Part shown: in pieces, positions 3,163 through 63,178 of the stretch
Layout of the letters: every line of letters begins with the position of its first letter
How positions within the stretch are numbered: the stretch's first letter is position 1
Assembly: GCA_018384735.1 (NCBI GenBank)
Contig: JAHAXB010000022.1
Coordinates: forward strand, 68,087-132,086
Length of the DNA stretch: 64,000 nucleotides
Direction: 5' to 3'
From: Eubacteriales bacterium
GTDB lineage: Bacteria > Bacillota > Clostridia > Christensenellales > UBA1242
Program-made: the position numbers and the translations under genes
The notes under the pieces: model-generated
The model's database searches: none
Seen by the model: the letters and a program-made list of their open reading frames with translations, nothing else
Told to the model about the DNA's origin: nothing

Positions 3163-5427
3163 TTAAAAATACCACGGAACCCGTTTGTTTTCAACCGCTT
3201 TACGCGGGGTAATCGGTTTAGTGTTATGTGGTAAGCGCAATTCGATTAAATTACTGGGGCGTGGATTATCGCCGTTAATGCTGGCGGTTACATGGTAATG
3301 GTTAATTGTTTGTGGGTTTTTATCGGTGTAAGTATAAACACCATGCTTGTTACGAATCACGGACTGTAAAGTGTCGTCGCGGTAAATTTCGTAGGTCTGG
3401 TGTGGTAAAACATTGAACCAAAGTAAAGTGTCGTTTTGGTCGGTAACGCGTCCGTCAATCGTGGTCGGCGTGGTCATTAAATAATTTTCCGAAACTGTCG
3501 TTGGTTGGTAACGCGTAGAAAATAAAGCCGGCGTGGTTTCGTATTCTGGCGTGGCGAGATTGGCTAATTTGATTTTACCGTTCTTGTAATCTAAACTGTC
3601 TAGATTGATGTTTTTTACACTGACGGGTTGTGAAAAATGTAAATCGGGGTCGCTGATAACACCATGAATTTGTGTAGCAGCCTTGGCCAAGCGTCCGCCG
3701 CCATTAGCACCATGGGGCAAGTCATTTTCGGGTTTCATACTGGCGTTACCATGCCAAACAATCAAAACATTTTGCGGAGTGTACGAAACCAAGGTTGCAT
3801 CCGTGTTAGTGTCGGTGTTTTCGCGTTCTGTGGTGCCGGTCTTGGCGGCGATTTCCGTATTTAACATAGCCAGTTTACGCGCGGTGCCTTTCTTAGCGGT
3901 ATCAACCAACATATCGGTTAAAAGGTATGCCGCGTCGGGTGCAATCGCTTGGGGTGAGTAATTATACTTGTTAGTTAAATCAAAATAAACGGTTTGACCC
4001 TTGCGGTCGCGAATGGCGCGAACAAAACGGGCAGGTGCGTATTTGCCTTGGTTAGCTAGTGTTTGATAGCCACCCGCCAGTTCCAAAAAGGTTGTGCCAG
4101 CGTTAGTATTACCAAGTGCCATTGATAAATTTTCATCATGTAAATTTAAGCCCATTTTATTGGCAATGTTAGTTGCGCTGTTGATGGTGGTGGCTTCCAA
4201 AATTTTCACGGCGGGGATATTGTAACTATGCATTATCGCATCACGCACGGAAACCAGACCATGGTATTTACCATCCGAATTTTTCGGGTTAAAGTCGGTA
4301 TCAATTAACTGGGCGTCGTCAATTAAACTGGCGGGTTGTACTACGCCTAATTCCAAAGCCGGTGCGTAAACCAATAAGGGTTTCATTGTGCTACCAAAAT
4401 TACGTCGTGCCGTCAGTAAGGTTGGCGTCGAAGACCAAAGCGCTTTTACTTGTCCGTTGGGTGCGGATAGCATGGCGAATTTTTCACCTTCTAAGTTGTA
4501 CTCCGGATTATTCATGGCATCATACAGTAATTGTTGTTTGTCCGGCTCATAATATGTGTCGATTTGATAACCGTAGTTGATGATGTCATTTTCGCTTAAA
4601 TTTAAAAGTTGTGCGGCCTCTTTCAGCGCCATGTTTTGGTAATTAGTGCCAAGCCAAAGGTTTTCCTGCGTATTAATTGTCAATGGTTCGTCCATTGCCG
4701 ATTTGAAAACTTCGTCCGTAATTAAACCTTGGTTATGCATTAAATGTAAGATTAAATGAGCGCGTTGGCGGAAGTTGTCGTGGTGCGCAATGGGGTCATA
4801 ACGACTGGGATTTTTAATAATTCCTGCTAATCCAGCACTTTCCGCCACGGACAGTTCGGCGGGCGTTTTTTGAAAGTAAAATTCGCTGGCATTCGCAATC
4901 CCGTAAACATTATTTCCGAAATAAATGGCGTTCAGGTATAACTCGATGATTTGGTCTTTGGAAAAGTTTTGTTCCACTTTTAATGCTAAGATGGCTTCCC
5001 GTAATTTTCGTTTCAATGTTTTTTCATTGGTCAAGTATGTGTTTTTGACTAACTGTTGGGTAATGGTGCTGGCACCTTCTTTGGAATAGCCGGCCACCAA
5101 ATTGTTGGAAACTGCTTTGGCAATTCTCGGAAATGATAACCCGTGGTGGCGATAAAAAGTGCGGTCTTCAACGGCAATGAAAGCGTTGATGCAGTTGGGG
5201 TTGATTTGGTCGATGGGACAATATTGGATTGCATTGTGGGCATCAATCGTTTGTTGCTCGCTGTCATAAAAGGTCGCTGTTTGTGCCATTGTAGTCAAAC
5301 GCGTAGTGTCCAAAGTTTCACTGTGCCAAATTAACGCAAAAGCTACGCTACCGGTTACAAGCAAAAGTAATACGCCGACCAGCAAGCCGGTAAAAATTTT
5401 ACGAACGATTTTTATTTGTTTGGACAC
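3163..5427 (-). CDS. Class A penicillin-binding protein (glycosyltransferase + transpeptidase)
   Basis: N-terminal TM anchor. GT51 motifs EDRTFYRHHG, GASTITQQ, RKLREA. Transpeptidase motifs STMK, SYN, KTGT. GTG start. Confidence 0.92.
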   Translation of the reverse strand: MSKQIKIVRKIFTGLLVGVLLLLVTGSVAFALIWHSETLDTTRLTTMAQTATFYDSEQQTIDAHNAIQYCPIDQINPNCINAFIAVEDRTFYRHHGLSFPRIAKAVSNNLVAGYSKEGASTITQQLVKNTYLTNEKTLKRKLREAILALKVEQNFSKDQIIELYLNAIYFGNNVYGIANASEFYFQKTPAELSVAESAGLAGIIKNPSRYDPIAHHDNFRQRAHLILHLMHNQGLITDEVFKSAMDEPLTINTQENLWLGTNYQNMALKEAAQLLNLSENDIINYGYQIDTYYEPDKQQLLYDAMNNPEYNLEGEKFAMLSAPNGQVKALWSSTPTLLTARRNFGSTMKPLLVYAPALELGVVQPASLIDDAQLIDTDFNPKNSDGKYHGLVSVRDAIMHSYNIPAVKILEATTINSATNIANKMGLNLHDENLSMALGNTNAGTTFLELAGGYQTLANQGKYAPARFVRAIRDRKGQTVYFDLTNKYNYSPQAIAPDAAYLLTDMLVDTAKKGTARKLAMLNTEIAAKTGTTERENTDTNTDATLVSYTPQNVLIVWHGNASMKPENDLPHGANGGGRLAKAATQIHGVISDPDLHFSQPVSVKNINLDSLDYKNGKIKLANLATPEYETTPALFSTRYQPTTVSENYLMTTPTTIDGRVTDQNDTLLWFNVLPHQTYEIYRDDTLQSVIRNKHGVYTYTDKNPQTINHYHVTASINGDNPRPSNLIELRLPHNTKPITPRKAVENKRVPWYF

Positions 5428-5457
5428 AGATTATTTTGTGTTAAACTATCTCATTCT

Positions 5458-6465
5458 ATGAAATTTGTACTAAAGAATTATGGTTGCCAAATGAATGTGA
5501 ATACTGCGCACAAAATTACGCAGCAATTATTGGCAGCGGGACATACGCTTGCGGAAACTGACGAAGATGCGGATGTCATTATTTTTAATACCTGCTGTGT
5601 GCGTAATACCGCCGAACAAAAAATCTTATCCCATATAGCTTTGGCAAAACAGTTAAAACAACATAAGCCCGATTTGAAAATTGCGGTCATTGGTTGTTTG
5701 TCCGCCAAACGCAAAATTAACGGCGTCGATATTTTGTTAGGCACAGATAATGCCATGGATGTGGTCGAAAAGTTGGGGGTTGCCGTCCGTCAATTACCGG
5801 CAGAACAGGGAACTACCGCATATATCGACATTACCTATGGCTGTGAAAATTATTGTACATACTGTATTGTCCCGTTCGTACGCGGTAAATTGCGTATTCG
5901 TCCGCGTGCGGAAATTCTTACTGAATTTGACCAAGTAAAAGACACTGCCAAGGATATTTATTTACTGGGACAAAATGTCAATGCTTATCCCGACTTTCCC
6001 AAGTTATTGGAGGAACTGGCACAAAAAGACGGTGATTTTACCTTGCATTTCCTGTCGGCACACCCAAAAGATTTCGCCCTTGAAACAATTAAAGTAATGG
6101 CCAAGTACCCCAAAATTGCCCACGATGTTCACTTGCCAATGCAGTGCGGATGTGATAAAATTCTAAAGTTAATGAACCGCAAGTATACTGTCGCGGACTA
6201 TCTTGAAAAAATCAGATTGCTCCGTGAGTATATGCCAGATATCCATATCACGACCGACATTATTTGTGGCTTTCCTGGGGAGACCGATGAGGATTTTGCA
6301 GAAACCGTGCGGATTGTTCAGCAAATCAAATTTAGTGCTGCGTATATCTTCCCATACAGTAATCGTTCGGGTACTGCGGCAGATAAAATGCCCAATCAAG
6401 TTCCGTTCCGTGTGCGTAAAGCACGTGCCACAAAATTGGTTGAATTGATGCGGGAGTTAGCGTAA
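5458..6465 (+). CDS. MiaB/RimO-family radical-SAM methylthiotransferase, no TRAM domain (335 aa)
   Basis: N-terminal UPF0004 cysteines (NYGCQMN, FNTCCVR, IGCLS), radical-SAM YGCENYCTYCIVP. Sits upstream of mutS-mutL as ymcB(miaB) does in B. subtilis. ORF ends directly after the radical-SAM core. Start taken at ATG 5458 (MKFVLKNYGCQMN). Confidence 0.8.
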   Translation: MKFVLKNYGCQMNVNTAHKITQQLLAAGHTLAETDEDADVIIFNTCCVRNTAEQKILSHIALAKQLKQHKPDLKIAVIGCLSAKRKINGVDILLGTDNAMDVVEKLGVAVRQLPAEQGTTAYIDITYGCENYCTYCIVPFVRGKLRIRPRAEILTEFDQVKDTAKDIYLLGQNVNAYPDFPKLLEELAQKDGDFTLHFLSAHPKDFALETIKVMAKYPKIAHDVHLPMQCGCDKILKLMNRKYTVADYLEKIRLLREYMPDIHITTDIICGFPGETDEDFAETVRIVQQIKFSAAYIFPYSNRSGTAADKMPNQVPFRVRKARATKLVELMRELA

Positions 6466-22683: not shown

Positions 22684-23592
22684 GTGCCATCTTTAGGGGA
22701 AATTTTAAGCGTTTTAATTGAATTTATCCCGCAAGTATTTTTGCTTTATTTGATTTTGACCGTTCTGGAAAAGAGCGGTCTTTTCAGTCAAATTGCGCGT
22801 GTTTTGCAGATTCCAGTCGCCAATGTTTTGCCAGTATGTCTGAGTTTTAATTGCACAACCATGGCAGTTTGTGCTGCGCGCGACCATCCGCAACGAAAAA
22901 GATTAGTTCATTTTCTCGCTTTGATTCCGTGTACGGCGCAACTGCCGATGTTAACTTTCTTGCTAATTAGCGTTTTACGCTTTCCGTTTTGGTCGATTCT
23001 GGCGGTCTATCTTTTGTGCATCGTGGTTGGCATGATTATGTTGATGTTGGTTCCAAAAATTTCCGCTGAACCTACGCATGAACCGGTTATCCCATTAAAC
23101 TTTCCGCATTTAGGGCAGTGTTTGTGGGATACAATTTGCCAAACATTGGTTTTTATGAAAAAGATTTTGGTTGCCTTTGCGGTCAGCGCATTCGTGATTG
23201 TCTTCTTGGCGCGTTTTTCGTTTGAATTTAAGTTTGTACAAGATTCCCAACAATCCATATTGTTTGCGATATGTGGCGTTTTTGCGCCGTTATTTGCACC
23301 GATTGGATTAAACCATCCCGTTTTGATTTGTGCCTTGTTATTTGGCTTAATTGCCAAGGAATCCGCTGTTTCTGTGTTGTTATTTTTTCCGCAAGTAGTC
23401 AACACTTTGCCCGTACCTGTTATTTTATCTTTGGTAACATTTTTCGTTTTTTATCCCAAATGTTTGGCGGCACAGACTGCCATTCAGCAGCATTGTGGTC
23501 GCCGCACCGGTGTTAAAGTCTTCCTTGTCAATTTGTTGCTTGCTTATAGTTTAAGTTTTGTTGTATATACTGTATGTGGAATCTTTATCTGA
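22684..23592 (+). CDS. FeoB-like membrane (Gate/FeoB_C) domain protein without GTPase domain
   Basis: LEKSGLFSQIARV...LSFNCTTMAVCAARD...LIPCTAQLP resembles the FeoB permease core LEDSGYM...GFGCNVPAIMATR...MSCSARLP. No G domain in this ORF or upstream. GTG start. Confidence 0.6.
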   Translation: MPSLGEILSVLIEFIPQVFLLYLILTVLEKSGLFSQIARVLQIPVANVLPVCLSFNCTTMAVCAARDHPQRKRLVHFLALIPCTAQLPMLTFLLISVLRFPFWSILAVYLLCIVVGMIMLMLVPKISAEPTHEPVIPLNFPHLGQCLWDTICQTLVFMKKILVAFAVSAFVIVFLARFSFEFKFVQDSQQSILFAICGVFAPLFAPIGLNHPVLICALLFGLIAKESAVSVLLFFPQVVNTLPVPVILSLVTFFVFYPKCLAAQTAIQQHCGRRTGVKVFLVNLLLAYSLSFVVYTVCGIFI

Positions 23593-25189: not shown

Positions 25190-26212
25190 TTACAATTTCA
25201 CCATGTCGGCGGCTTTGATGCGAATGTCATCGCTGATGGCAGCGTAGTGTTTCTTGGTCGTGTTAATGTCTTTATGACCCAAAACATCGGCTACCACATA
25301 AATATCGTTGGTCGCTTTGTAAAGATTGGTACCGTAAGTTGAACGCAACTTGTGCGGGCTAATCTTTTTTAATGGTGCCGCGACTTTGGCGTATTTTTTA
25401 ACAATGTTTTCGACCGAACGTACAGTTAAACGGTGTCCGCACTTAGTAAACAACGGAGTATTGGGTTTCCATTCTCCTTCGTTAAAGTAAATCGCAAAGC
25501 GGTCATGTAATTGTTGACCCATGTGTAAAATGGTTTGCTTGCCACCTTTGCGGGTGACTAAGAAAGTTTTGTTGACTAAATCAATATCTTGGTAATCCAA
25601 TCCGACCAGTTCGCTAACACGGATGCCGGACAGTAGAAACAAAGTAATTATCATTTCATCACGTGGATTTTCAGCGGCTGCGCTAATCATTTTTTCTACT
25701 TCTTCATCGGATAAACGAATAATACTTTTTTCGTAAACTTTGGGTAAATCAATTTTGGTCATAATGTTTTCTTGCAAATCGCCACGGCGGTAAAAGTATT
25801 TAAAGAACGAACGCAGGGCTGCCATCTTGCGCATTTTTCCGCGCTCGCCATTCAAATGGTCGGCACCATCTTTTTTGTAATGACTTAAAAACGACATGTA
25901 AAGTTCTAAATCGTCAATCGTGATTTTGTTTAAATCGGTTTTTTCAAAGTCCGCCATTTGGTAGTTATGGAACTGGTCAGTTTCGGTAATCAAAAAGTTA
26001 AAAAAGATTTCCAAATCGCGGGCGTATCCTAAACGCGTTAGCGGGGAAGTGACCTGCTCAATGCCCAAAAAGAAAGCGTTACAAAATGTGGGTAAATTTT
26101 CCAGCACGCGATTTAATTGTTCGGTGTTGTAAATATCGCGCTCGGTTACATATTTCATCAATACATTTTGACATAAAAATGAAAAATTTTCCATCACTTT
26201 TTGCTTCGTCAC
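25190..26212 (-). CDS. Tyrosine site-specific recombinase (XerC/XerD family)
   Basis: Catalytic R (GIRVSEL), HKLRSTY (HxxR), LGHKDINTTKKHY (H/Y). No flanking repeats or phage genes seen. Confidence 0.85.
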   Translation of the reverse strand: MTKQKVMENFSFLCQNVLMKYVTERDIYNTEQLNRVLENLPTFCNAFFLGIEQVTSPLTRLGYARDLEIFFNFLITETDQFHNYQMADFEKTDLNKITIDDLELYMSFLSHYKKDGADHLNGERGKMRKMAALRSFFKYFYRRGDLQENIMTKIDLPKVYEKSIIRLSDEEVEKMISAAAENPRDEMIITLFLLSGIRVSELVGLDYQDIDLVNKTFLVTRKGGKQTILHMGQQLHDRFAIYFNEGEWKPNTPLFTKCGHRLTVRSVENIVKKYAKVAAPLKKISPHKLRSTYGTNLYKATNDIYVVADVLGHKDINTTKKHYAAISDDIRIKAADMVKL

Positions 26213-31658: not shown

Positions 31659-32546
31659 TTAGTAATACTTTTTGCGGCTGTTGATGAGTTCCCAGTATTG
31701 ATAATCGAGGGAGCGGAAAACGCGTTGCGCACTGATAACGGTAACGTGGGCATTAACCAATGCATCGACCACATCTTGAACACGTTCAGGTTTCAAATTG
31801 ACAATCACTTGGTCGCCACAAAGACGGGCAGGAACTTGGAAAACGTCTTCAAGTACTTTGGCGGCGTAGTTTGGTTCGGCAACGGTTACGCCCAATTTTG
31901 CATTGTCAAGTTCGCGGGCAACCATGGCGTTGTAAGATTGAATGCTGATAATCATGCCGTCATCAATAAATGCAATGGTGTCGCAAAATTCCTCGACCGC
32001 GGAAATCTTGGAGGCCGTAACCATGATTGAGGTGCGGAGTTCCTTACCAATCTTCTTTAACAAAACGCGTAAGTCCTTGGCTTGTTGTTTATCTAAGTTA
32101 GCGAACGGATTATCCAAAATTAAAATGTCGGTGCGTAAAATTAATGGTAAAGACATTTTTAGTAAGTCACGTTCCGCCAAGGTCAATTCGGAAATTTTGT
32201 GGTTATAGTGTTTGCGCAAGTTAAATAACGCCAAAATATTTTTTGCATTGCGTCCGTGGTAAGCGTGGTCGCGTAATTTGCAATAATCCTTAATCGCGTT
32301 TTTCACGGTAATATGGGGCATTAACTGTTCGTGCGGAATAAAAGCGCCCATGTATTGGTTAGCGGAAACTTTAATTGAACCGCGTGTTTTGTGTGATAAA
32401 GTTAAAATCAATTTTGACAATAAACTTTTACCGCTGGCGTGTTCACCTACCAAAGCCAAAATTTCGCCTTCGTGCAAAGTTAAATTAACATCGGTCATTA
32501 ACATTTTTTTAGAATCGGCTTTTTCCAAATTAGTTACTGTTAACAT
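31659..32546 (-). CDS. ABC-type ATPase with degenerate catalytic motifs
   Basis: Walker A GEHASGKS is intact. Signature reads LTLAE, Walker B ILILDN (Glu to Asn), H-loop position TASK (His to Lys). Start ATG 32546 overlaps the upstream stop. The rest of ORF 31659..32822 is an upstream extension. Confidence 0.8.
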   Translation of the reverse strand: MLTVTNLEKADSKKMLMTDVNLTLHEGEILALVGEHASGKSLLSKLILTLSHKTRGSIKVSANQYMGAFIPHEQLMPHITVKNAIKDYCKLRDHAYHGRNAKNILALFNLRKHYNHKISELTLAERDLLKMSLPLILRTDILILDNPFANLDKQQAKDLRVLLKKIGKELRTSIMVTASKISAVEEFCDTIAFIDDGMIISIQSYNAMVARELDNAKLGVTVAEPNYAAKVLEDVFQVPARLCGDQVIVNLKPERVQDVVDALVNAHVTVISAQRVFRSLDYQYWELINSRKKYY

Positions 32547-33535
32547 ACAAACCAACTCCTTTTGTACAAAACAACCATGAAAATGAAACGCACTAACGGG
32601 AACGGTGCAAAAACCAATAACCACAACACTGACGGAGTAGTGGTAGCAAAACTGGAAGCGACCACCAAAACAATTAAAATGAAAGTGAAAATCAACTGGC
32701 GAATACCGGTCGTTTTTTTGTCGAACATCGTTTTGATACGTGGGTAAAAAATGTAGATTGCTAACCAAATTAAAGCGTACAAAACCAAAGTAATGTAAAC
32801 GATACTGTAACATTCTTGGCAAATATTATGGGTTAACGAAAAAATAAAATTGATTAGTACAAACAAAGCCGTGGTCAGCGTCATAGAGACTACGCGCAAA
32901 CGATTAATGAAGACGTAATCGTTGCCCACCGGAATACTGTTCAAATCTAATAATGGGCGCAGGTCGCTGCCACCCGTGGTACCGGACAAGCCGATTGTCG
33001 TTTGTTGGTATTGTGGTGCTGGAGTAGCCGTAATCTTTTCGTTGGGCGCAATGTACGGTGTATACGGCGAAAGTTTGGATTCTTTCTTGGTTGCTGGCGC
33101 CGGTTGCGTTGCCGTGGTCGGCGTTGGGTTAATTTGCAAAACGCGTTTTTCCTCGGGCAGTTCCGACACTAACGGTTTTTTGTTCAACGGCAAAGAAAAA
33201 GCCTCTTCCAAAGAAGCAAAGGTTTTTTGTGCCTTAACCGAATTGTCGGCAATTTGTTGATAATCAATTTTAATCGGATTTTTCGCTAAATATTCGCGTC
33301 CGGTATTGGTAATGTTATAAACGCGGCAACGACCACCAATCGAGGATTCTTTTTGATAACTGTTGACATATTTTTTGTCCGCCATGCGGTGCAAAGAAGA
33401 ATACAAGGTCGGCAAAGACATAATCACCGTATTACCCGATAATCGTTTAATTTCGTCAATCATCTCAGCACCGTACATTGGACGATTGCTGAGCAAATTG
33501 AGAATGGTAATTTCTGTCATTCTACCGCGTGCCAC
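32540..33535 (-). CDS. PadR-family winged-helix regulator fused to a 4-TM membrane domain
   Basis: N-terminal PadR pattern (ILNLLSNRPMYGAEMIDEI...LPTLYSSLHRM...YNITNTGREYL), P/T-rich linker, then four hydrophobic helices. GTG 33535 or ATG 33520. Confidence 0.8.
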   Translation of the reverse strand: MARGRMTEITILNLLSNRPMYGAEMIDEIKRLSGNTVIMSLPTLYSSLHRMADKKYVNSYQKESSIGGRCRVYNITNTGREYLAKNPIKIDYQQIADNSVKAQKTFASLEEAFSLPLNKKPLVSELPEEKRVLQINPTPTTATQPAPATKKESKLSPYTPYIAPNEKITATPAPQYQQTTIGLSGTTGGSDLRPLLDLNSIPVGNDYVFINRLRVVSMTLTTALFVLINFIFSLTHNICQECYSIVYITLVLYALIWLAIYIFYPRIKTMFDKKTTGIRQLIFTFILIVLVVASSFATTTPSVLWLLVFAPFPLVRFIFMVVLYKRSWFVC

Positions 33536-34288: not shown

Positions 34289-35470
34289 ATGGCACAAGAT
34301 CGTGATATTTATTTGGATAACGCTGCAACGACCTATTGTAATGGTGAAGTTTTCTATGCCATGCAACCGTATTTTATTTCTAACTATGGTAACCCGAATT
34401 CTGTTCACCAATCTGGTTATGCTGCTCGTGACGCCGTCGAAAAAGCGCGTGCAGCGGTAGCAAAAATTATTAACGCTGATCCTGATGAAATTTATTTTAC
34501 CTCGGGTGCAACCGAAGCCAACAACTGGGCAATTAAAGGTATTGTATGGGCTTCGCCAATTAAACGTGTTTTGGTAAGTGCGATTGAACACCCGAGTATT
34601 ATCAAAGCGGCACGCTGGTTGGAAAAGCAGGGCGTCGAAGTTGAATACATTAAAGTTGACGAGAATGGAATTATTTCTATTCCGGACTTATTGGCTAAGT
34701 TGGCTAAACCAGCTTGCTTGGTTTCGGTCATGACCGCTAACCACGAAGTTGGTACGGTTCAATACATTAACACCATCGCTAATATTTGCAGTAAGAATAA
34801 TGTTTATTTCCATACTGATGCTACCCAAGCGTTAGAGAGCGTTAGCATTAACGTTAAGGAAATGGATATCACCGCCTTGTCATTATCGGGACATAAAATT
34901 TATGGTCCCAAAGGTGTTGGCGCACTTTACATTAAACGTGGTACCAATATTGATGTTTTCATGCATGGCGGACACCAAGAAAAAGGTATGCGGGGCGGCA
35001 CCTATAATTTGCCGGCCATTGTCGGTTTGGGTAAAGCCGTGGAAATTTGTATGCGTGACGGTAACTCTAACAATGTCCGCATGAAACAATTACGTGACTA
35101 TTTCATTAAAGAAGTTGAAACCAAAATTCCGGGCGTAAAATTAAATGGTCACCGTAACCAACGTTTAAGCAATAACATTAACTTTTCTTTCCTTGGGGTC
35201 ATTGGCGAAAGTATCACCGCTATGTTGGATACTATGGGCATTCGCGCTTCGACCGGTACCGCCAGCACCAGTGAAACCTTAAACCAAAGTTATGTTTTGA
35301 AAGCCATCGGTGTTGCTGATGATTATATCAATGGTTCGGTGCGTTTCACTTTGGGACGCGGAACCACCAAAGAAGATTTGGATTACACAGTTAATTGCCT
35401 GATGACTGTAGTTAAAAAATTACGTACTGTCAGTCCAATCAATTTGAAAGCAGGAGGAGAGAATGTATAA
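34289..35470 (+). CDS. NifS/IscS-like class V PLP enzyme with catalytic Cys replaced by Ser
   Basis: YLDNAATT, HTDATQA, PLP-Lys in SLSGHKIYGPKG, RFTLGR. The active-site loop reads STGTASTS where IscS/NifS have SSGSACTS (Ser326, AGC 35264-35266). Confidence 0.9.
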   Translation: MAQDRDIYLDNAATTYCNGEVFYAMQPYFISNYGNPNSVHQSGYAARDAVEKARAAVAKIINADPDEIYFTSGATEANNWAIKGIVWASPIKRVLVSAIEHPSIIKAARWLEKQGVEVEYIKVDENGIISIPDLLAKLAKPACLVSVMTANHEVGTVQYINTIANICSKNNVYFHTDATQALESVSINVKEMDITALSLSGHKIYGPKGVGALYIKRGTNIDVFMHGGHQEKGMRGGTYNLPAIVGLGKAVEICMRDGNSNNVRMKQLRDYFIKEVETKIPGVKLNGHRNQRLSNNINFSFLGVIGESITAMLDTMGIRASTGTASTSETLNQSYVLKAIGVADDYINGSVRFTLGRGTTKEDLDYTVNCLMTVVKKLRTVSPINLKAGGENV

Positions 35471-35864
35471 CGAAATTATTCAAGCCAGGTTTCAAGATTT
35501 AAAAAATGCCGGCATGATTACTGGTGCAGATGCCGTCGGTCAAGTCGGTAATGTTGGTTCCGGTGATATGGTGCGCATTTATTTGCGCATTGTTGATGGT
35601 GTCATTAAAGATGCCAAGTTCAAAACCTTTGGTAGTGTTTATGGCTTAGTGGCCAGCGATATTCTGTGCGATATGCTGAAAAACACCCGTGTCGAAGACG
35701 CTTTACTAATCAAAGGTGAAGATATCGTTAAAGCCTTAAATGGTTTACCTGATAATAAATTACATATTGCTGATTTAGCACAGTCCGTTGTTGCCGATGC
35801 CATTGCAGATTACCGTAAAAAATTAGAAAGATTGGCCGCTAAAGCCAATGTAAAAAAGAAGTGA
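35463..35864 (+). CDS. IscU/NifU-N-like protein lacking all three cluster-ligand cysteines
   Basis: Collinear with IscU. GNVGSGD (Cys37 to Ser33), KTFGSVYG (Cys63 to Ser58), KLHIAD (Cys106 to Ile102). Asp and His equivalents kept. AGGAGG SD. 8-nt overlap with the nifS-like gene. Confidence 0.85.
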   Translation: MYNEIIQARFQDLKNAGMITGADAVGQVGNVGSGDMVRIYLRIVDGVIKDAKFKTFGSVYGLVASDILCDMLKNTRVEDALLIKGEDIVKALNGLPDNKLHIADLAQSVVADAIADYRKKLERLAAKANVKKK

Positions 35865-35868
35865 GTCC

Positions 35869-36927
35869 ATGTTAGATTATAGTGTCATTCAAAAAGCCAA
35901 GTTAAAACTTGACGCAATTCACGAATTAGTCGCGTCAAAAAAGGATGAGTTAGCAACCTTATTAAAAAAACAAGAACAAGATTGGAACAATGTTGCCCAA
36001 AATAAGCGCATCAAATCTTTGCAAGAGTTCTGCGACGAGTTTGATACCGTGGAACATGATTTGACGGATTTTTTGGAATTAACCGCTGTATGTTCCGAAG
36101 CCGAATTAGCCGATGAATATGCACGCGTCAAAAAACAATTTGATGATTTTTATGTTAAGACTTTGTTGGTTGGTAAATACGACGGTTGTAACTGTGTTTT
36201 GAACATTACCGCCGGTGCCGGTGGAACCGAAGCGCAAGACTGGGCAGAAATGGTCATGCGTATGATGTGCCGTTTTGCTGAACAACAAAATTTCGATTAT
36301 GAAATTACTGATGTTGAAGAAGGCGACGGCGCGGGCGTTAAAGGTGCTTCAATTGCGGTCAACGGCGTCAATGCTTACGGTATTTTCAAAAGCGAAGCCG
36401 GTGTACATCGCTTGGTTCGTATTAGTCCTTTCGACGCAAATAAACGTCGTCATACCAGTTTCGTCGCGGTCGAAGTTATCCCACAAATTGAAAAAACCGA
36501 ATACAAAGTTGAAGAAAAAGATTTGCGCATCGATGTTTATCGTGCTTCGGGCGCAGGCGGACAACACATTAACAAAACCGAAAGCGCGGTGCGTATTACT
36601 CACATTCCGACCGGTATTGTTTGTACTTGTCAAAATGGTCGCAGTCAAATTCAAAACCGCCAAACATGTATGCAAAACCTGTTATCTAAATTGGAATATA
36701 TCCACTTTGAAAATGAACGCCGCAAGTTAAAAAACTTGCAACCGGTGCAAATGAAAATTGAATGGGGCAGTCAAATCCGCAGTTATGTTTTCTGCCCGTA
36801 TACCATGGTTAAAGACCATCGTACTGGTGCCGAAACTTCCAACGTGGAAAAAGTTATGGATGGTGATTTGAAGATGTTCTCCGACGCTTTCTTGTTACAA
36901 AATGCCGAGGAAAACCAATCATGCTAA
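35869..36927 (+). CDS. prfB: Peptide chain release factor 2, single uninterrupted ORF
   Basis: SPF tripeptide (RISPFD), GGQ (SGAGGQHINKTES). The ORF begins MLDY..., at the position that follows the frameshift site in canonical prfB. Confidence 0.93.
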   Translation: MLDYSVIQKAKLKLDAIHELVASKKDELATLLKKQEQDWNNVAQNKRIKSLQEFCDEFDTVEHDLTDFLELTAVCSEAELADEYARVKKQFDDFYVKTLLVGKYDGCNCVLNITAGAGGTEAQDWAEMVMRMMCRFAEQQNFDYEITDVEEGDGAGVKGASIAVNGVNAYGIFKSEAGVHRLVRISPFDANKRRHTSFVAVEVIPQIEKTEYKVEEKDLRIDVYRASGAGGQHINKTESAVRITHIPTGIVCTCQNGRSQIQNRQTCMQNLLSKLEYIHFENERRKLKNLQPVQMKIEWGSQIRSYVFCPYTMVKDHRTGAETSNVEKVMDGDLKMFSDAFLLQNAEENQSC

Positions 36928-58816: not shown

Positions 58817-59446
58817 TTAAATCCGTTCGCTGAATTTGACCCAATCAACTACATTCCAAAACGCGTCAAGATATGCTTGGCGTTCGTTTAGGTGTTGCAA
58901 ATAGTATGCGTGCTCCCAAACATCCAAACATAAAATCGGCGTTCCGTCCTGCGGAACATTTTGGTTGGCCGTAGTGGTAATTTTCAATTCGCCTTTTGCA
59001 TTTTTAATTAACCAAGCATACCCCGAGCCAAAAATGCTGAGTGCGGCGCTGGCAAATTGTTCCTTGAAGGTTTTCCAACCACCAAAAGCCGCAGTAATTT
59101 TTTGTGTCGCTTGTGGCGTAATACCAATAACAATTTGTCCGGTGGCAGGTCGCAATTCTGTAAAGAAGAAAAAGTGGTTGTAAACTCCCCCTGCTTGACG
59201 GCGCAATTCAAGATCATGATTAGTTTCCGCATAATTCAATAATTCGGACAAAGTTAAACCTTGTAATTCTAAACGGTTTTCCAAGATTTGATTCAGGTTT
59301 TTAATGTAATTAGCTAATAAGCGGTCATAGTGCGCGCGCATAGTTTTGGCATCGATATACGGTTCCAACGCGTGTAAATTGTAACTCAAATTGATGTTAT
59401 AAAATGGGTATGTCATTTGTTCCCAGTTTTGTGTTGCATTTTCCAT
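58817..59446 (-). CDS. sodA: Fe/Mn superoxide dismutase
   Basis: HYDRLLANY..., DVWEHAYYL metal-ligand motif. Confidence 0.95.
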   Translation of the reverse strand: MENATQNWEQMTYPFYNINLSYNLHALEPYIDAKTMRAHYDRLLANYIKNLNQILENRLELQGLTLSELLNYAETNHDLELRRQAGGVYNHFFFFTELRPATGQIVIGITPQATQKITAAFGGWKTFKEQFASAALSIFGSGYAWLIKNAKGELKITTTANQNVPQDGTPILCLDVWEHAYYLQHLNERQAYLDAFWNVVDWVKFSERI

Positions 59447-60001: not shown

Positions 60002-61528
60002 TTATAAGCGGTTAAACATGCGTTGACCAATCGTATAAGTTAAAGTAATCACAATTGCATCCGCCAATGCTAAAGCACTAGCAATAATTGCAAATAGGGC
60101 CATCGCCGGCAAACTGTCAGCCAATGAAATTACTAAAGCCATCATACCGGCAACAATTACCACTCCCCCCAACATCATCAAATAAGAACTCATACTGTGT
60201 TTAATTACTGCGGCTTCGCTTTCAAATTCTAATTTTGGGAAATACAAGTTGACCATTACGCCGATGTATGAAACCAATACATGAGCCAATGTCGGGATAA
60301 TCAACAAAGCCACCAGGCATAATGGCGACAAATGCAAAATCGTTCCCAACAAAACGCCACAGACTAACGAAATTGGTGTTAATAGAATCACGTTAAATAA
60401 TACTTTCGTGCTTAACACTGTTGCAGCTGAAATGGGCATACTACGTAAAATCCATAATTGTTTTCCTTCCAGCGAAATTGAGAAAGCAGCTGGATAAGTT
60501 AATACACCAGCTGCAGCATAAATAATGGCAATAATCAAATAAGCAACATCTTTTGATATAACAAAAGTACCGCACAGTAAACCAACCATAGTTGCACCTT
60601 GGTCAACAACCAACCAAATGGTCAAAGCAACCAAAGCCAATGGGCCTAAAATCGTATTCAGCATCATGGTCGGTGAGTTAAAATAGCGGTTACTTTCATT
60701 TTTCAAAATGGCTCGGAAAGGCGTAATTGATCTATGACTAATTTGTGTTGCTTTCGCATGCGTTGAGCGAGCTTCACGGTTTAATAATAATGCATTCAAC
60801 CAATTTCCCAAAATAAACATGGCCAAAACTATCACAATCAACGGGACCATTACCAATGGATTAAACTTTACCATCCAAATAATCAAACCCGCGATAAATG
60901 GCGTATTCATATTCAACATGAAAAATTCATAAATGGCTAGAACCCCAATTAAAACTAATAAAGTAAATAACGCCTTTGTAATATTACCCAATTTTGAATT
61001 CGAGAAACAAACTGTAACTAAATAATCAACGATGTAAGATAAACCTACGCCTAACAAAGGAATTAACAGCATGGTTGTGGTGCAACCGAAAAATGCCGGA
61101 AGGCTAAATTGCGTGGTTCCCAAATATGCAATGATACACGGTAAAAAGAACAGTACCACAACCAACGAGTTTACTGCAAAACGTGATAAGGCTTTGGCAA
61201 CCATAATCTCAATTTTCCTAAACGGCATACTCAACAGTAATTCGTTATCGTTAGCTTTCTGTCCACCTGTAACCTTTTGTAAGGCAAAAATTACCGAAAG
61301 GAAAAGTGAAATAACCAAACCGTACATCAGAACACAGGCTTGCATATTCATTTCGGCGTAAACATCTGCAATCATAAACATGCACCATGTATAGAAAGCA
61401 AACCACCCCAATGACAAAACGGTCAAAATCGAAACACCAACAACAGCTTTGGTACGGGTGTTTTTACGGCGTAAGTTACCGATGCTACAAAGTAGATAAT
61501 TTTTTAACAGCAACCAAATGTTACGCAT
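60002..61528 (-). CDS. Multi-pass ABC exporter permease (about 12 TM)
   Basis: 508-aa polytopic membrane protein. Start overlaps the stop of the ABC ATPase gene upstream. Confidence 0.75.
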   Translation of the reverse strand: MRNIWLLLKNYLLCSIGNLRRKNTRTKAVVGVSILTVLSLGWFAFYTWCMFMIADVYAEMNMQACVLMYGLVISLFLSVIFALQKVTGGQKANDNELLLSMPFRKIEIMVAKALSRFAVNSLVVVLFFLPCIIAYLGTTQFSLPAFFGCTTTMLLIPLLGVGLSYIVDYLVTVCFSNSKLGNITKALFTLLVLIGVLAIYEFFMLNMNTPFIAGLIIWMVKFNPLVMVPLIVIVLAMFILGNWLNALLLNREARSTHAKATQISHRSITPFRAILKNESNRYFNSPTMMLNTILGPLALVALTIWLVVDQGATMVGLLCGTFVISKDVAYLIIAIIYAAAGVLTYPAAFSISLEGKQLWILRSMPISAATVLSTKVLFNVILLTPISLVCGVLLGTILHLSPLCLVALLIIPTLAHVLVSYIGVMVNLYFPKLEFESEAAVIKHSMSSYLMMLGGVVIVAGMMALVISLADSLPAMALFAIIASALALADAIVITLTYTIGQRMFNRL

Positions 61529-62222
61529 TCAAGAATACCTCTTCCAAACTCTTGTCGGCTTTAATTTCCTTCATCGTACCTTGCTTGATTACAGTACCAT
61601 TCTTAATCATAATTACTTTGTTACATAACTTTTCGGCAACTTCCAATACATGGGTTGAATAAAAAATCGCGCCGCCATTTTTGACAAATTCTTGCATCAA
61701 TTTTTTCAAAGTAAATGACGCTTGAGGATCCAAACCGACGAATGGTTCATCCAAAACTAATAATTTCGGATTACGCATGAACGCCGCAATTAAAACTAAC
61801 TTTTGACGCATACCATGTGAATATGATTTAATTGGTAGTCCCAAACTTTCGGTCATACCCCATTCATCCGCATAGCGCGCAATCGCTTGATCACGGTCTG
61901 CAATGGAAACACGATAAACCGAAGCGACAAAGCTTAAATACTCGTTACCGGTTAAGTTGGTATAAACATCTGGATTGTCAGGAATGTAAGCAATCACACG
62001 CTTACACGCCAATGGGTCATTTTTAATCGAATGGTTATCAATTAAGATTTCCCCGGCTTCAAAATCCAAGGTTCCCACTATGCAACGAATGGTTGTAGTT
62101 TTACCGGAACCATTTGGTCCAATAAAAGCGCAGATGTCCCCTGCTTCGACCGACAAATTTAGATTTTGCACGCCAACTTTCCCGTCAGCGTAGGTTTTGG
62201 TTAAATTACTAATTTTTAACAT
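61521..62222 (-). CDS. ABC transporter ATP-binding protein (catalytic motifs intact)
   Basis: GPNGSGKTT, YSHGMRQKL, LLVLDEPFVGLD, STHVL. Confidence 0.92.
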   Translation of the reverse strand: MLKISNLTKTYADGKVGVQNLNLSVEAGDICAFIGPNGSGKTTTIRCIVGTLDFEAGEILIDNHSIKNDPLACKRVIAYIPDNPDVYTNLTGNEYLSFVASVYRVSIADRDQAIARYADEWGMTESLGLPIKSYSHGMRQKLVLIAAFMRNPKLLVLDEPFVGLDPQASFTLKKLMQEFVKNGGAIFYSTHVLEVAEKLCNKVIMIKNGTVIKQGTMKEIKADKSLEEVFLNA

Positions 62223-62257: not shown

Positions 62258-63178
62258 TTAAATTAATTTATCGCCAATATTTTGGTCAATTTGAATTTGG
62301 AATTGTGCTTTGGCTTCCAAATATTGCGTAATAGCATCAATCACATCGTGAATGGTGCCTAAACTATCAGCCCCCACTAAATTGATGATTTCTTGGTTAA
62401 TTACATTAAAATGTTTCTTGTAAAATTCCAAATTAAGCTCCCTAATTTTGAATTTCTTTTCCATGTGGCGAATTAAGGTTTCAATGGCTTTGGTTTTTTG
62501 ATTGGTCGCACGCGCGGTTGGAAACATCTTGGAATCATATAACACACTTGGATTGCGTGTTAATTCGTATTTGCGCAAGTTATTCAGGTAATTATCCAAA
62601 CGCACTTCATCAAGGAATTCAAAATTACGCAACACAGGGTCATAAGGTTGTTGATAATCTGTGGAAAAGCATTCGCTACGTACCATACTATCATTAATTC
62701 CCAAAATCTTACTTTTGGAACGTGCTTGCTGTAATTTAGTTTTCAAGACGGGTTTAAAATTGTTTTGTTCGTGATTTGGTAATTTCCAACCATCAAGGTT
62801 CATAATCAAATGTTGCAAACTATACAAGTATAACGAAGTTTTCTTGGCCGTCATATATGGGGAATTTTGTTCATGATAACTCTTTACTTCGTTGATAGTA
62901 GTTTGAAATCCAGCTTCAACACTTTGTAAGGTGTGGTCATTTTTAGCACTAATCAGCGTGACAAAGGCGCGTTCAAAAGACCTTAAAATAATGCGCTCAC
63001 TCATCAACGATTCAATTCCCAAAGCAACCGTCGGATTATCGCCGGCAACTTTGTTAATAATTTTACGCAAAGCAACGTTTGAAGCTTTATTTTCTTCCAA
63101 GAAGTCCTGAATGTCAATATTCTCAAATTTCATTCCAGCTTTATCTTTACTTTCATTCATTTTCATATTATAGCACAA
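62258..63178 (-). CDS. Hypothetical soluble helical protein (~300 aa)
   Basis: Long clean ORF between two ABC systems. No motif recognised. The likely start is ATG 63160 (TGcTATAAT box at 63167-63175). Confidence 0.6.
   Translation of the reverse strand: MCYNMKMNESKDKAGMKFENIDIQDFLEENKASNVALRKIINKVAGDNPTVALGIESLMSERIILRSFERAFVTLISAKNDHTLQSVEAGFQTTINEVKSYHEQNSPYMTAKKTSLYLYSLQHLIMNLDGWKLPNHEQNNFKPVLKTKLQQARSKSKILGINDSMVRSECFSTDYQQPYDPVLRNFEFLDEVRLDNYLNNLRKYELTRNPSVLYDSKMFPTARATNQKTKAIETLIRHMEKKFKIRELNLEFYKKHFNVINQEIINLVGADSLGTIHDVIDAITQYLEAKAQFQIQIDQNIGDKLI

Follow-up and report, generated by a model that had tools for sequence, protein, structure and literature searches.

A NifS-NifU-like gene pair of uncultured Clostridia without persulfide and cluster-ligand cysteines is retained by selection

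Few known proteins are as conserved as NifS/IscS and IscU, which are commonly defined by their catalytic cysteines. What, then, keeps a NifS-NifU gene pair in a genome after these cysteines have gone? The question is raised by a 64,000-nucleotide (nt) stretch from a Eubacteriales bacterium (assembly GCA_018384735.1, contig JAHAXB010000022.1, positions 68,087 to 132,086 of the forward strand), hereafter called the window. A first-pass annotation, made from the letters of the window, had pointed out two overlapping open reading frames (ORFs): a NifS-like ORF with serine in place of the persulfide-forming Cys, and a NifU-like ORF downstream of it with none of the three Cys ligands of the iron-sulfur (Fe-S) cluster. 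Positions in this report (Table 1) are window coordinates, and names such as L001, L081 and L167 or P0025 denote loci and proteins, respectively, of homologues. We show by sequence comparison that the pair should be unable to run the known persulfide-relay and scaffold chemistry, yet is retained by selection with its pyridoxal 5'-phosphate (PLP) site intact.

The NifS-like protein has a full-length fold-type I, class V aminotransferase domain (Aminotran_5, PF00266, 1.3e-72, residues 7-366; Pfam). Its best NCBIfam model is NifS (TIGR03402), with a score of 463.6 bits that stays under the equivalog cutoff of 530.75; against TIGR02006 it scores 390.2 bits (cutoff 643.2). HMMER alignment to solved structures matched residues 5-384 to human NFS1 with 322 bits. 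In this alignment the NFS1 'SSGSACTS' stands opposite 'STGTASTS', which bears out the earlier placement of Ser326 in the column of the catalytic, persulfide-forming Cys, and residues 318-334 contain no Cys at all. The motifs YLDNAATT, HTDATQA, SLSGHKIYGPKG and RFTLGR are all present, each aligned with its NFS1 counterpart. The GMR.GT motif and the substrate arginine are unchanged, and the PLP- and substrate-binding residues (His, Asn, Asp, Gln, Ser, His-Lys, Thr', Arg) match those of NFS1.

Retention of the PLP site, which had been claimed for the window protein, extends to its relatives. Across 40 NifS-like sequences of the clade, T75, H101, N151, D177, Q180, S200, H202, K203 and R352 are invariant, so that nine of the ten active-site residues do not vary (hypergeometric P = 0.009). 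In the MAFFT alignment, column 326 holds Ser in 36 of the 40 and Cys in the other four, compared to Cys in 61 of 61 outgroup sequences. The clade is fixed differently from the canonical outgroup at positions 44, 47, 143, 171, 195, 247, 324, 326 and 329 only; of these nine, three (324, 326 and 329) belong to the catalytic loop, and no PLP or substrate residue is among them. A retuned active site was considered and ruled out on this ground. In the clade, the catalytic loop diverges 2.3-2.4 times as much as the protein on average, compared to 0.70 times in canonical relatives, which is the largest constraint shift anywhere in the protein. Within the loop, S328 and E329 are largely kept and positions 327 and 330-333 are variable. 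The restriction of column 326 to Ser or Cys hints that the side chain at this position still matters.

The NifU-like protein belongs to NifU_N (PF01592, 1.8e-28; Pfam). The assignment of the two proteins to PF00266 and PF01592 was thus confirmed, and alignment to solved structures placed no Cys in the catalytic loop or in the ligand columns. The best NCBIfam model, clostridial NifU (TIGR03419), gives 103.3 bits, under the cutoff of 187.9; the scores against TIGR01999 (70.9 bits, cutoff 192.4) and TIGR01994 (34.4 bits, cutoff 92.5) are also too low. Alignments to the Archaeoglobus fulgidus and other IscU structures put Ser33 (GSGD), Ser58 (FGSVY) and Ile102 (LHIA) on the three ligand Cys, as had been proposed. 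Each of the 95 canonical NifU sequences in the set has Cys in these columns; no NifU-like protein of the clade has. The equivalents of IscU Asp39 and His105 had been described as kept. They are indeed present in the window protein, as D35 and H101, but the two columns are not conserved across the clade (D/N/E/T/S and H/Q/Y/K), and their presence in the window is therefore without functional weight. In the clade proteins, as judged from the alignment, larger hydrophobic side chains have taken up the cluster pocket (A60 to Y/F, C102 to I, A68 to L, A63 to V and G59 to V relative to canonical NifU), and no new conserved polar cluster was found in place of the ligands in the clade alignment. The AlphaFold2 model of the protein has a mean pLDDT (predicted local distance difference test score) of 94.4 and aligns to IscU structures with a TM (template modelling) score of about 0.83 and a root-mean-square deviation of about 2 Å (Foldseek). 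The NifU-like protein would accordingly fold well, as an IscU-like subunit in which metal ligands are not conserved. In E. coli, the IscU residues that contact IscS are Tyr3, Tyr11, Gly38, Lys42, Lys59-Gly64 and Lys103 (Shi et al., PMC2854127). Their equivalents are kept in the clade (Y2, F10, G34, K/R38, K54-G57 and K99), from which we infer that the NifU-like protein can still dock on its NifS-like partner.

Both ORFs, their coordinates, the 8-nt overlap and the AGGAGG Shine-Dalgarno sequence, 5 nt upstream of the NifU-like start codon, were found in the sequence as first described. The overlap indicates that the two genes are probably translationally coupled. It is also annotated in nine orthologous loci, and in L176 and L178, which belong to the unrelated lineages described below.

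A homologue search across 5.8 billion proteins found the NifS-like family (75-95% identical), together with a matching NifU-like family, in assemblies from NCBI, ENA, JGI and Logan. The ORFs are intact in over 40 distinct sequences, with up to about 25% protein divergence. The source names and samples of the homologues point to uncultured Clostridia of herbivore guts (L001, for example, is the clade genome Clostridia bacterium RGIG7181, JAFYKU01, and L081 lies in assembly GCA_023666145.1), and the canonical outgroups are labelled Christensenellaceae. By exact-protein look-up, nine loci were found to share one gene order, YgjP-like / NifS / NifU / prfB / tsaD / NYN / alaS / ... / ThiI. Within this synteny, locus L167 carries a canonical pair with the loop GSACSS and a NifU with CGD, FGC and HCS, all four Cys being kept. 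Since a canonical pair occupies the same genomic position, the Cys-less genes are vertical descendants of an ordinary NifS-NifU operon. The NifU-like clade is narrow: of 1.84 billion cluster representatives searched exhaustively with phmmer, only one scored below 1e-30.

This distribution bears directly on the reliability of the four codons. It could be argued that an error of sequencing or assembly, or a recoding, fakes Ser and Ile codons at true Cys positions. We found no point in favour of such an artefact, and its probability is negligible: four separate codons are affected, the same states recur in independent assemblies from four sources and in dozens of distinct homologues, the other Cys codons of both ORFs read normally, and the Ser codons differ by lineage (AGC, AGT, TCA). 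Sequencing error is refuted by the comparative data.

Whether the pair is decaying was evaluated with pairwise Nei-Gojobori estimates, in which dS is saturated. Against clade orthologues, the NifS-like gene has a dN of 0.045-0.2 and a dS above 1, giving an approximate dN/dS (omega) of 0.02-0.1, which is in the range of the neighbouring tsaD and ygjP-like genes. The NifU-like omega is about 0.05-0.2. Both genes are under strong purifying selection, with dN far below dS and the NifS-like gene as constrained as tsaD, in agreement with the initial impression that they are not decaying. The ratio of NifU to NifS divergence is 2.06 in the clade, compared to 0.95 in canonical pairs; the constraint on the NifU-like gene is relaxed, yet far from neutral. 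If the two genes were dispensable remnants, turning into pseudogenes after another Fe-S system took over, one could understand why the catalytic Cys are all gone, why the catalytic loop is relaxed and why the divergence of the NifU-like gene relative to NifS is about double that of canonical NifU. Such simple decay is contradicted by the low dN/dS (about 0.02-0.2) and by ORFs that stay intact in more than 40 distinct sequences although synonymous sites are saturated. The overlap, the Shine-Dalgarno sequence and the synteny are also kept, the PLP site is invariant and the NifU-like protein is predicted to fold with confidence, all of which leaves decay very improbable.

The order in which the cysteines were lost was examined with a neighbour-joining tree of NifS, calculated with the loop columns left out and 100 bootstrap replicates. 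The main clade has 100% and its sister clade 99% bootstrap support. Subclade A of the main clade has the loops T(S/T)SY(G/S) and ASCS, and subclade B has ASSS, ASSV, ACSS and ASTS, the last being that of the window. The sister clade is made up of canonical sequences (ACSS) and a branch without the Cys (ASRN, ASSN). In L169, a member of this branch, the NifU is also Cys-less at the ligand columns (S/G/S) and otherwise canonical-looking, so that L169 represents an independent loss of all four Cys. Codon 326 is AGY in subclade B, TCA in subclade A, TGT (Cys) in L081 and AGC in L169. The AGY and TCA codons point to at least two Cys-to-Ser routes in the main clade, to which one in the sister clade is added; by this reading of the codons, the NifS Cys was lost at least three times, always to Ser.

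The first-pass annotation had proposed a coordinated loss in both partners, and this part of it is not upheld. The NifU is Cys-less throughout the main clade, while the NifS of L081 keeps its Cys (GTACSS) and those of L085 and L001 have a Cys at +1 (ASCS), each beside a fully Cys-less NifU. A Cys-bearing NifS next to a Cys-less NifU implies that the scaffold ligands were lost first and the NifS nucleophile later, repeatedly, and the alignments are better described by a two-step pathway than by coordinated loss. It is noted that the subclade with the loop 'GTASCS', in which a conserved Cys follows the Ser of the catalytic column, includes L085 (10001-11185), L001 (1277-2455) and proteins P0025 and P0028-P0040. 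This Cys may be a shifted nucleophile, in which case these relatives may still be desulfurases despite their Cys-less NifU partner. A further NifS-like protein, P0049 (71% identical), has a loop that is two residues shorter and lacks Cys ('GSVHHHEA'), which may represent another independent loss or a local frameshift.

Coordinated loss is also countered by Cys-less NifU proteins outside the clade. Among the best 150 of the 50%-identity cluster representatives retrieved by phmmer, about 48 are without at least one ligand Cys and about 18 without all three. They are 35-45% identical to the window NifU-like protein and scattered among canonical sequences, and a profile search with these proteins gave further members, named only as metagenome-assembled 'Clostridia bacterium'. 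Three unrelated uncultured lineages were checked (L176, 3424-4939; L177, 3-754; L178, 3824-5387), and each has a Cys-less NifU_N gene 3' of NifS, with SSV, GGS and GGT in the respective ligand columns. In L176 and L178 this gene overlaps the 3' end of NifS; in L177 it lies 2 nt after a truncated NifS ORF. The NifS of all three has the catalytic Cys, in the loops GSACASGS, GAACTAGS and GSACSSGS, respectively. A NifS with a Cys-less IscU-like partner in these lineages makes step one of the pathway recurrent, and it is the second step, the Cys-less NifS, that sets the window clade and L169 apart. A single origin of all Cys-less NifU was considered and ruled out: the nearest relatives outside the clade are canonical (about 56% identity), and the other Cys-less lineages are at most 45% identical. 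Literature searches found no publication on a natural Cys-less NifS or IscU, or on a Cys-less NifU with a Cys-bearing NifS.

We have compared the pair to known systems. The closest are the two-gene NifS-NifU/IscS-IscU pairs ('MIS': class I desulfurase and IscU-type scaffold, no carrier; clostridial TIGR03402/TIGR03419, A. fulgidus PDB 4EB5), which are alike in folds, gene order and overlap layout. They give the best family and structure matches of the window pair, share its PLP site and IscS-IscU contacts, and include its direct, canonical sister lineage. Compared to them, the window pair has its persulfide Cys and three ligands replaced, scores under the equivalog cutoffs and has a relaxed loop. 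On these sequence features the pair should not be filed as a cysteine desulfurase and an Fe-S scaffold, despite its NifS-NifU fold, layout and descent. A. fulgidus IscS has been called an 'inactive cysteine desulfurase paralog' (PMC8918507, citing Pagnier et al. 2015). Like the window protein, it is a natural homologue that is retained and partners with IscU, desulfurase activity being lost in A. fulgidus. There, however, the IscS catalytic Cys is kept as a cluster ligand and the IscU Cys are kept, whereas the window pair keeps the PLP lysine and has lost the Cys in both proteins. The residue lost from A. fulgidus IscS is the PLP lysine.

An engineered counterpart of the window NifS-like protein is E. 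coli IscS C328S, the same substitution at the same position as Ser326. The PLP absorbance is preserved in this mutant, and with L-cysteine it gives a stable species at 350 nm; most IscS active-site variants in the same study lost desulfurase activity, and only R354K is named as fully active (PMC9978102). By analogy with the stalling of C328S, the window NifS-like protein would be without cysteine desulfurase activity. The difference is that C328S is a laboratory mutant, whereas the Ser326 protein is natural, under clade-wide purifying selection and accompanied by a Cys-less partner. A NifS-like PLP enzyme that naturally has no active-site Cys is Synechocystis C-DES (L-cyst(e)ine C-S lyase), a monomeric enzyme that operates through beta-elimination and not via an enzyme persulfide (PMC8300815). 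In a PDB sequence search with the window protein, the top matches are all class I desulfurases, and C-DES does not appear in the best 60; nor is C-DES described with an IscU-like partner in PMC8300815. Outside its loop, the window protein has no active-site changes of the beta-elimination type. In SufS-SufU, the IscU-fold partner is a desulfurase accessory rather than a cluster scaffold, as it could be here. SufU is a zinc-binding persulfide acceptor with its Cys ligands in place. Unlike SufU, the window NifU-like protein scores under the TIGR01994 cutoff and has no Cys at the ligand columns.

What can be said of the function? A repurposed role outside persulfide chemistry, as first suggested for this pair, is still its most reasonable reading, any specific chemistry or regulation being inferred. 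In our opinion the pair is probably a vertical descendant of a two-gene NifS-NifU ('MIS'-type) system that lost its persulfide and cluster chemistry and is still needed. As shown above, the IscU-type subunit gave up all three Cys ligands at the origin of the clade, with the pocket refilled and the IscS-contact residues retained. The Cys of the NifS loop then became dispensable and was replaced by Ser at least three separate times, while the remaining loop drifted. The rest of NifS, with the entire PLP and substrate site, stayed under strong purifying selection, as did the NifU-like protein, and the coupling overlap was kept. The complex that would persist, NifS-like2/NifU-like2, would bind PLP and an amino-acid substrate, forming no enzyme persulfide and no cluster, and Fe-S assembly and sulfur for ThiI and the MiaB-like enzyme would have to be provided by a further system encoded at another site in the genome. 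The likeliest mechanism would be that of a Cys-independent beta-lyase acting on substrates with good leaving groups (selenocysteine, cysteine sulfinate) to give alanine, with the NifU-like protein as a structural or activating subunit of such a lyase. Mihara and co-workers (2000) are reported to have found that the three NifS homologues of E. coli, with the Cys mutated to Ala, remain able to cleave selenocysteine and cysteine sulfinate. By this analogy, a Cys-independent PLP lyase chemistry is a tentative assignment, more apt to be wrong than right.

Several points weigh against the account of a pair that has lost its sulfur chemistry and is still needed. No selenium or sulfinate genes were found in the 64-kb window. 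The omega values are only approximate, because synonymous sites are saturated. The complex itself is a prediction from conserved contact residues. Column 326 is only ever Ser or Cys in 40 sequences although its neighbours vary, which a model of an unused loop does not explain. Finally, desulfurase activity may persist in the sublineages with a loop Cys (ACSS, ASCS), in which case the clade may not have a single function in common.

A first functional alternative is a regulatory, for instance cysteine-sensing, pseudoenzyme: the Ser326 protein would bind PLP and L-cysteine and stall like C328S, and the occupancy of the complex would be read by another protein. The stable 350 nm species of C328S and the inactivity of most variants in that study (PMC9978102) fit this proposal, as do the invariant PLP and substrate residues, the restriction of 326 to Ser or Cys and the purifying selection on both proteins. 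No partner or DNA-binding protein can be tied to the pair, however; it is surrounded by genes of housekeeping function, and the canonical sister pair has the upstream PadR-like gene beside it as well. In Bacillus, the PLP enzyme CysK acts in a comparable regulatory way together with the repressor CymR. We regard a regulatory role as rather unlikely. It is computationally indistinguishable from a catalytic one, and the present data do not separate the two; the lyase is ranked slightly ahead because the whole catalytic apparatus is invariant and 326 is held to Ser. The remaining alternative, a still working sulfur or Fe-S system, would rely on substitutes, such as C17, C143 and C254 of the NifS-like protein, C69 of the NifU-like protein, a Cys in trans (e.g. 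that of ThiI) or non-Cys ligands. These four extra Cys are invariant in the clade, some sublineages have a loop Cys at 326 or 327, and ThiI and the MiaB-like enzyme of the window need sulfur and Fe-S clusters. A compensating role of C17, C143, C254 and C69 was nevertheless ruled out, as all are already present in the canonical sister lineage and hence older than the loss; C17 (TYCNGEVF) is also found in more distant canonical relatives, in about 7% of the outgroup set. Moreover, the former ligand positions are variable and inert (S/A/T/L, S/G/N and I/V/M), the Asp and His are not conserved, the pocket is hydrophobic with no new conserved polar cluster, and E. coli C328S stalls on L-cysteine, most variants of that study being inactive. 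A system working with substitutes is therefore improbable, though less so than decay.

Apart from this pair, the window covers housekeeping genes of a sporulating Clostridia genome (41% GC), including spoIIGA, sigE, yqfD, ftsZ, mutSL, secDF and alaS. No suf or isc genes and no second nifS were found in the 64 kb. The clients of sulfur and Fe-S supply that had been reported there are real (Table 1). In the MiaB-like ORF, which ends 10 nt before mutS, no TRAM domain was detected. The window ThiI, with EDCC and no rhodanese domain, is presumably the Bacillus-like form. The PadR/ABC pair lies on the opposite strand directly 5' of the ygjP-nifS-nifU-prfB-tsaD block, a place kept in all syntenic loci, the canonical one included. 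The tyrosine recombinase is found at the same position in every syntenic locus and is thus probably a housekeeping Xer-type enzyme and not a prophage integrase. No antitoxin was identified for the PemK/MazF-like gene. Many bacteria have a programmed +1 frameshift in prfB; the window prfB shows no sign of one. Two of the three ORFs without a Pfam match interleave with ABC ATPase genes at 61521-62222 and 63197-63985.

Table 1. Features of the NifS-NifU-like locus and of other parts of the 64,000-nt window (aa, amino acids)
Feature	Position	Strand	Remarks
NifS-like ORF	34289..35470	+	393 aa; class I NifS/IscS-type PLP enzyme without persulfide-forming Cys
Lys203 codon AAA (PLP Schiff-base lysine, in SLSGHKIYGPKG)	34895..34897	+	aligned to NFS1 motif SISGHKIYGPKG
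Ex-catalytic loop, residues 322-333 (TGTASTSETLNQ)	35252..35287	+	divergence shift, per-site counts
Ser326 codon AGC, column of persulfide Cys (E. coli IscS Cys328)	35264..35266	+	NFS1 alignment
AGGAGG Shine-Dalgarno of NifU-like ORF, within NifS-like 3' end	35452..35457	+	read from sequence
8-nt overlap ATGTATAA, NifS-like stop codon / NifU-like start codon	35463..35470	+	sequence
NifU-like ORF	35463..35864	+	133 aa; IscU/NifU_N fold, 0/3 cluster-ligand Cys
Ser33 codon TCC, ligand Cys 1 (E. coli IscU Cys37)	35559..35561	+	clade: S, A, T or L
Ser58 codon AGT, ligand Cys 2 (IscU Cys63)	35634..35636	+	clade: S, G or N
Ile102 codon ATT, ligand Cys 3 (IscU Cys106)	35766..35768	+	clade: I, V or M
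prfB (PCRF and RF-1 domains)	35869-36927	+	one uninterrupted ORF, start 5 nt past NifU-like stop codon
MiaB-like radical-SAM ORF, CENYCTYC	5416-6465	+	349 aa; UPF0004 and radical-SAM domains, CxxxCxxC and all Cys motifs intact
ThiI	44938-46119		EDCCTVF motif, no rhodanese domain
PadR-type regulator and ABC ATPase	32540-33535 and 31659-32822	-	regulator with long C-terminal hydrophobic, membrane-like extension; ATPase follows
Tyrosine recombinase (Phage_integrase family)	25190-26212	-	between HD-domain gene and spoIIGA
PemK/MazF-like toxin gene	43357-43770	-	1.7e-28; between UvrD-type helicase and lgt, kept in syntenic loci
Fe/Mn superoxide dismutase	58817-59446	-	in otherwise sporulating-gut-Clostridia-like genome
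Three ORFs without Pfam match at 1e-5	60002-61528, 62258-63178, 22684-23592	-, -, +	508, 306, 302 aa

The loss of four Cys, a constraint like that of tsaD, an essential gene of tRNA modification, and the repeated loss of the nucleophile together argue for a selectable role beyond Fe-S assembly. That the NifS-IscU complex has an unrecognised persulfide- and cluster-independent function, sufficient to retain both genes under strong purifying selection and uncovered repeatedly in gut-associated anaerobic Clostridia, initially in several lineages with a NifS beside a Cys-less IscU-like subunit and afterwards, in the window clade, in a fully Cys-less pair with Ser conserved where the nucleophile had been, is in our judgement nearly an even call, though slightly short of it. 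If true, the pair would represent a new functional class, now mislabelled 'cysteine desulfurase' and 'Fe-S scaffold' by annotation pipelines. The close relatives described here, with identical synteny, provide a natural series for finding this role, from the canonical pair through a Cys-less scaffold with a Cys-bearing NifS and a shifted Cys to the fully Cys-less pair. From anaerobes, clostridia included, SUF- or SMS-type systems that use sulfide have been described (PMC12192291), and the finding would have a bearing on how sulfur is supplied for clusters and tRNA thiolation in gut anaerobes, for example directly as sulfide via systems of these types.

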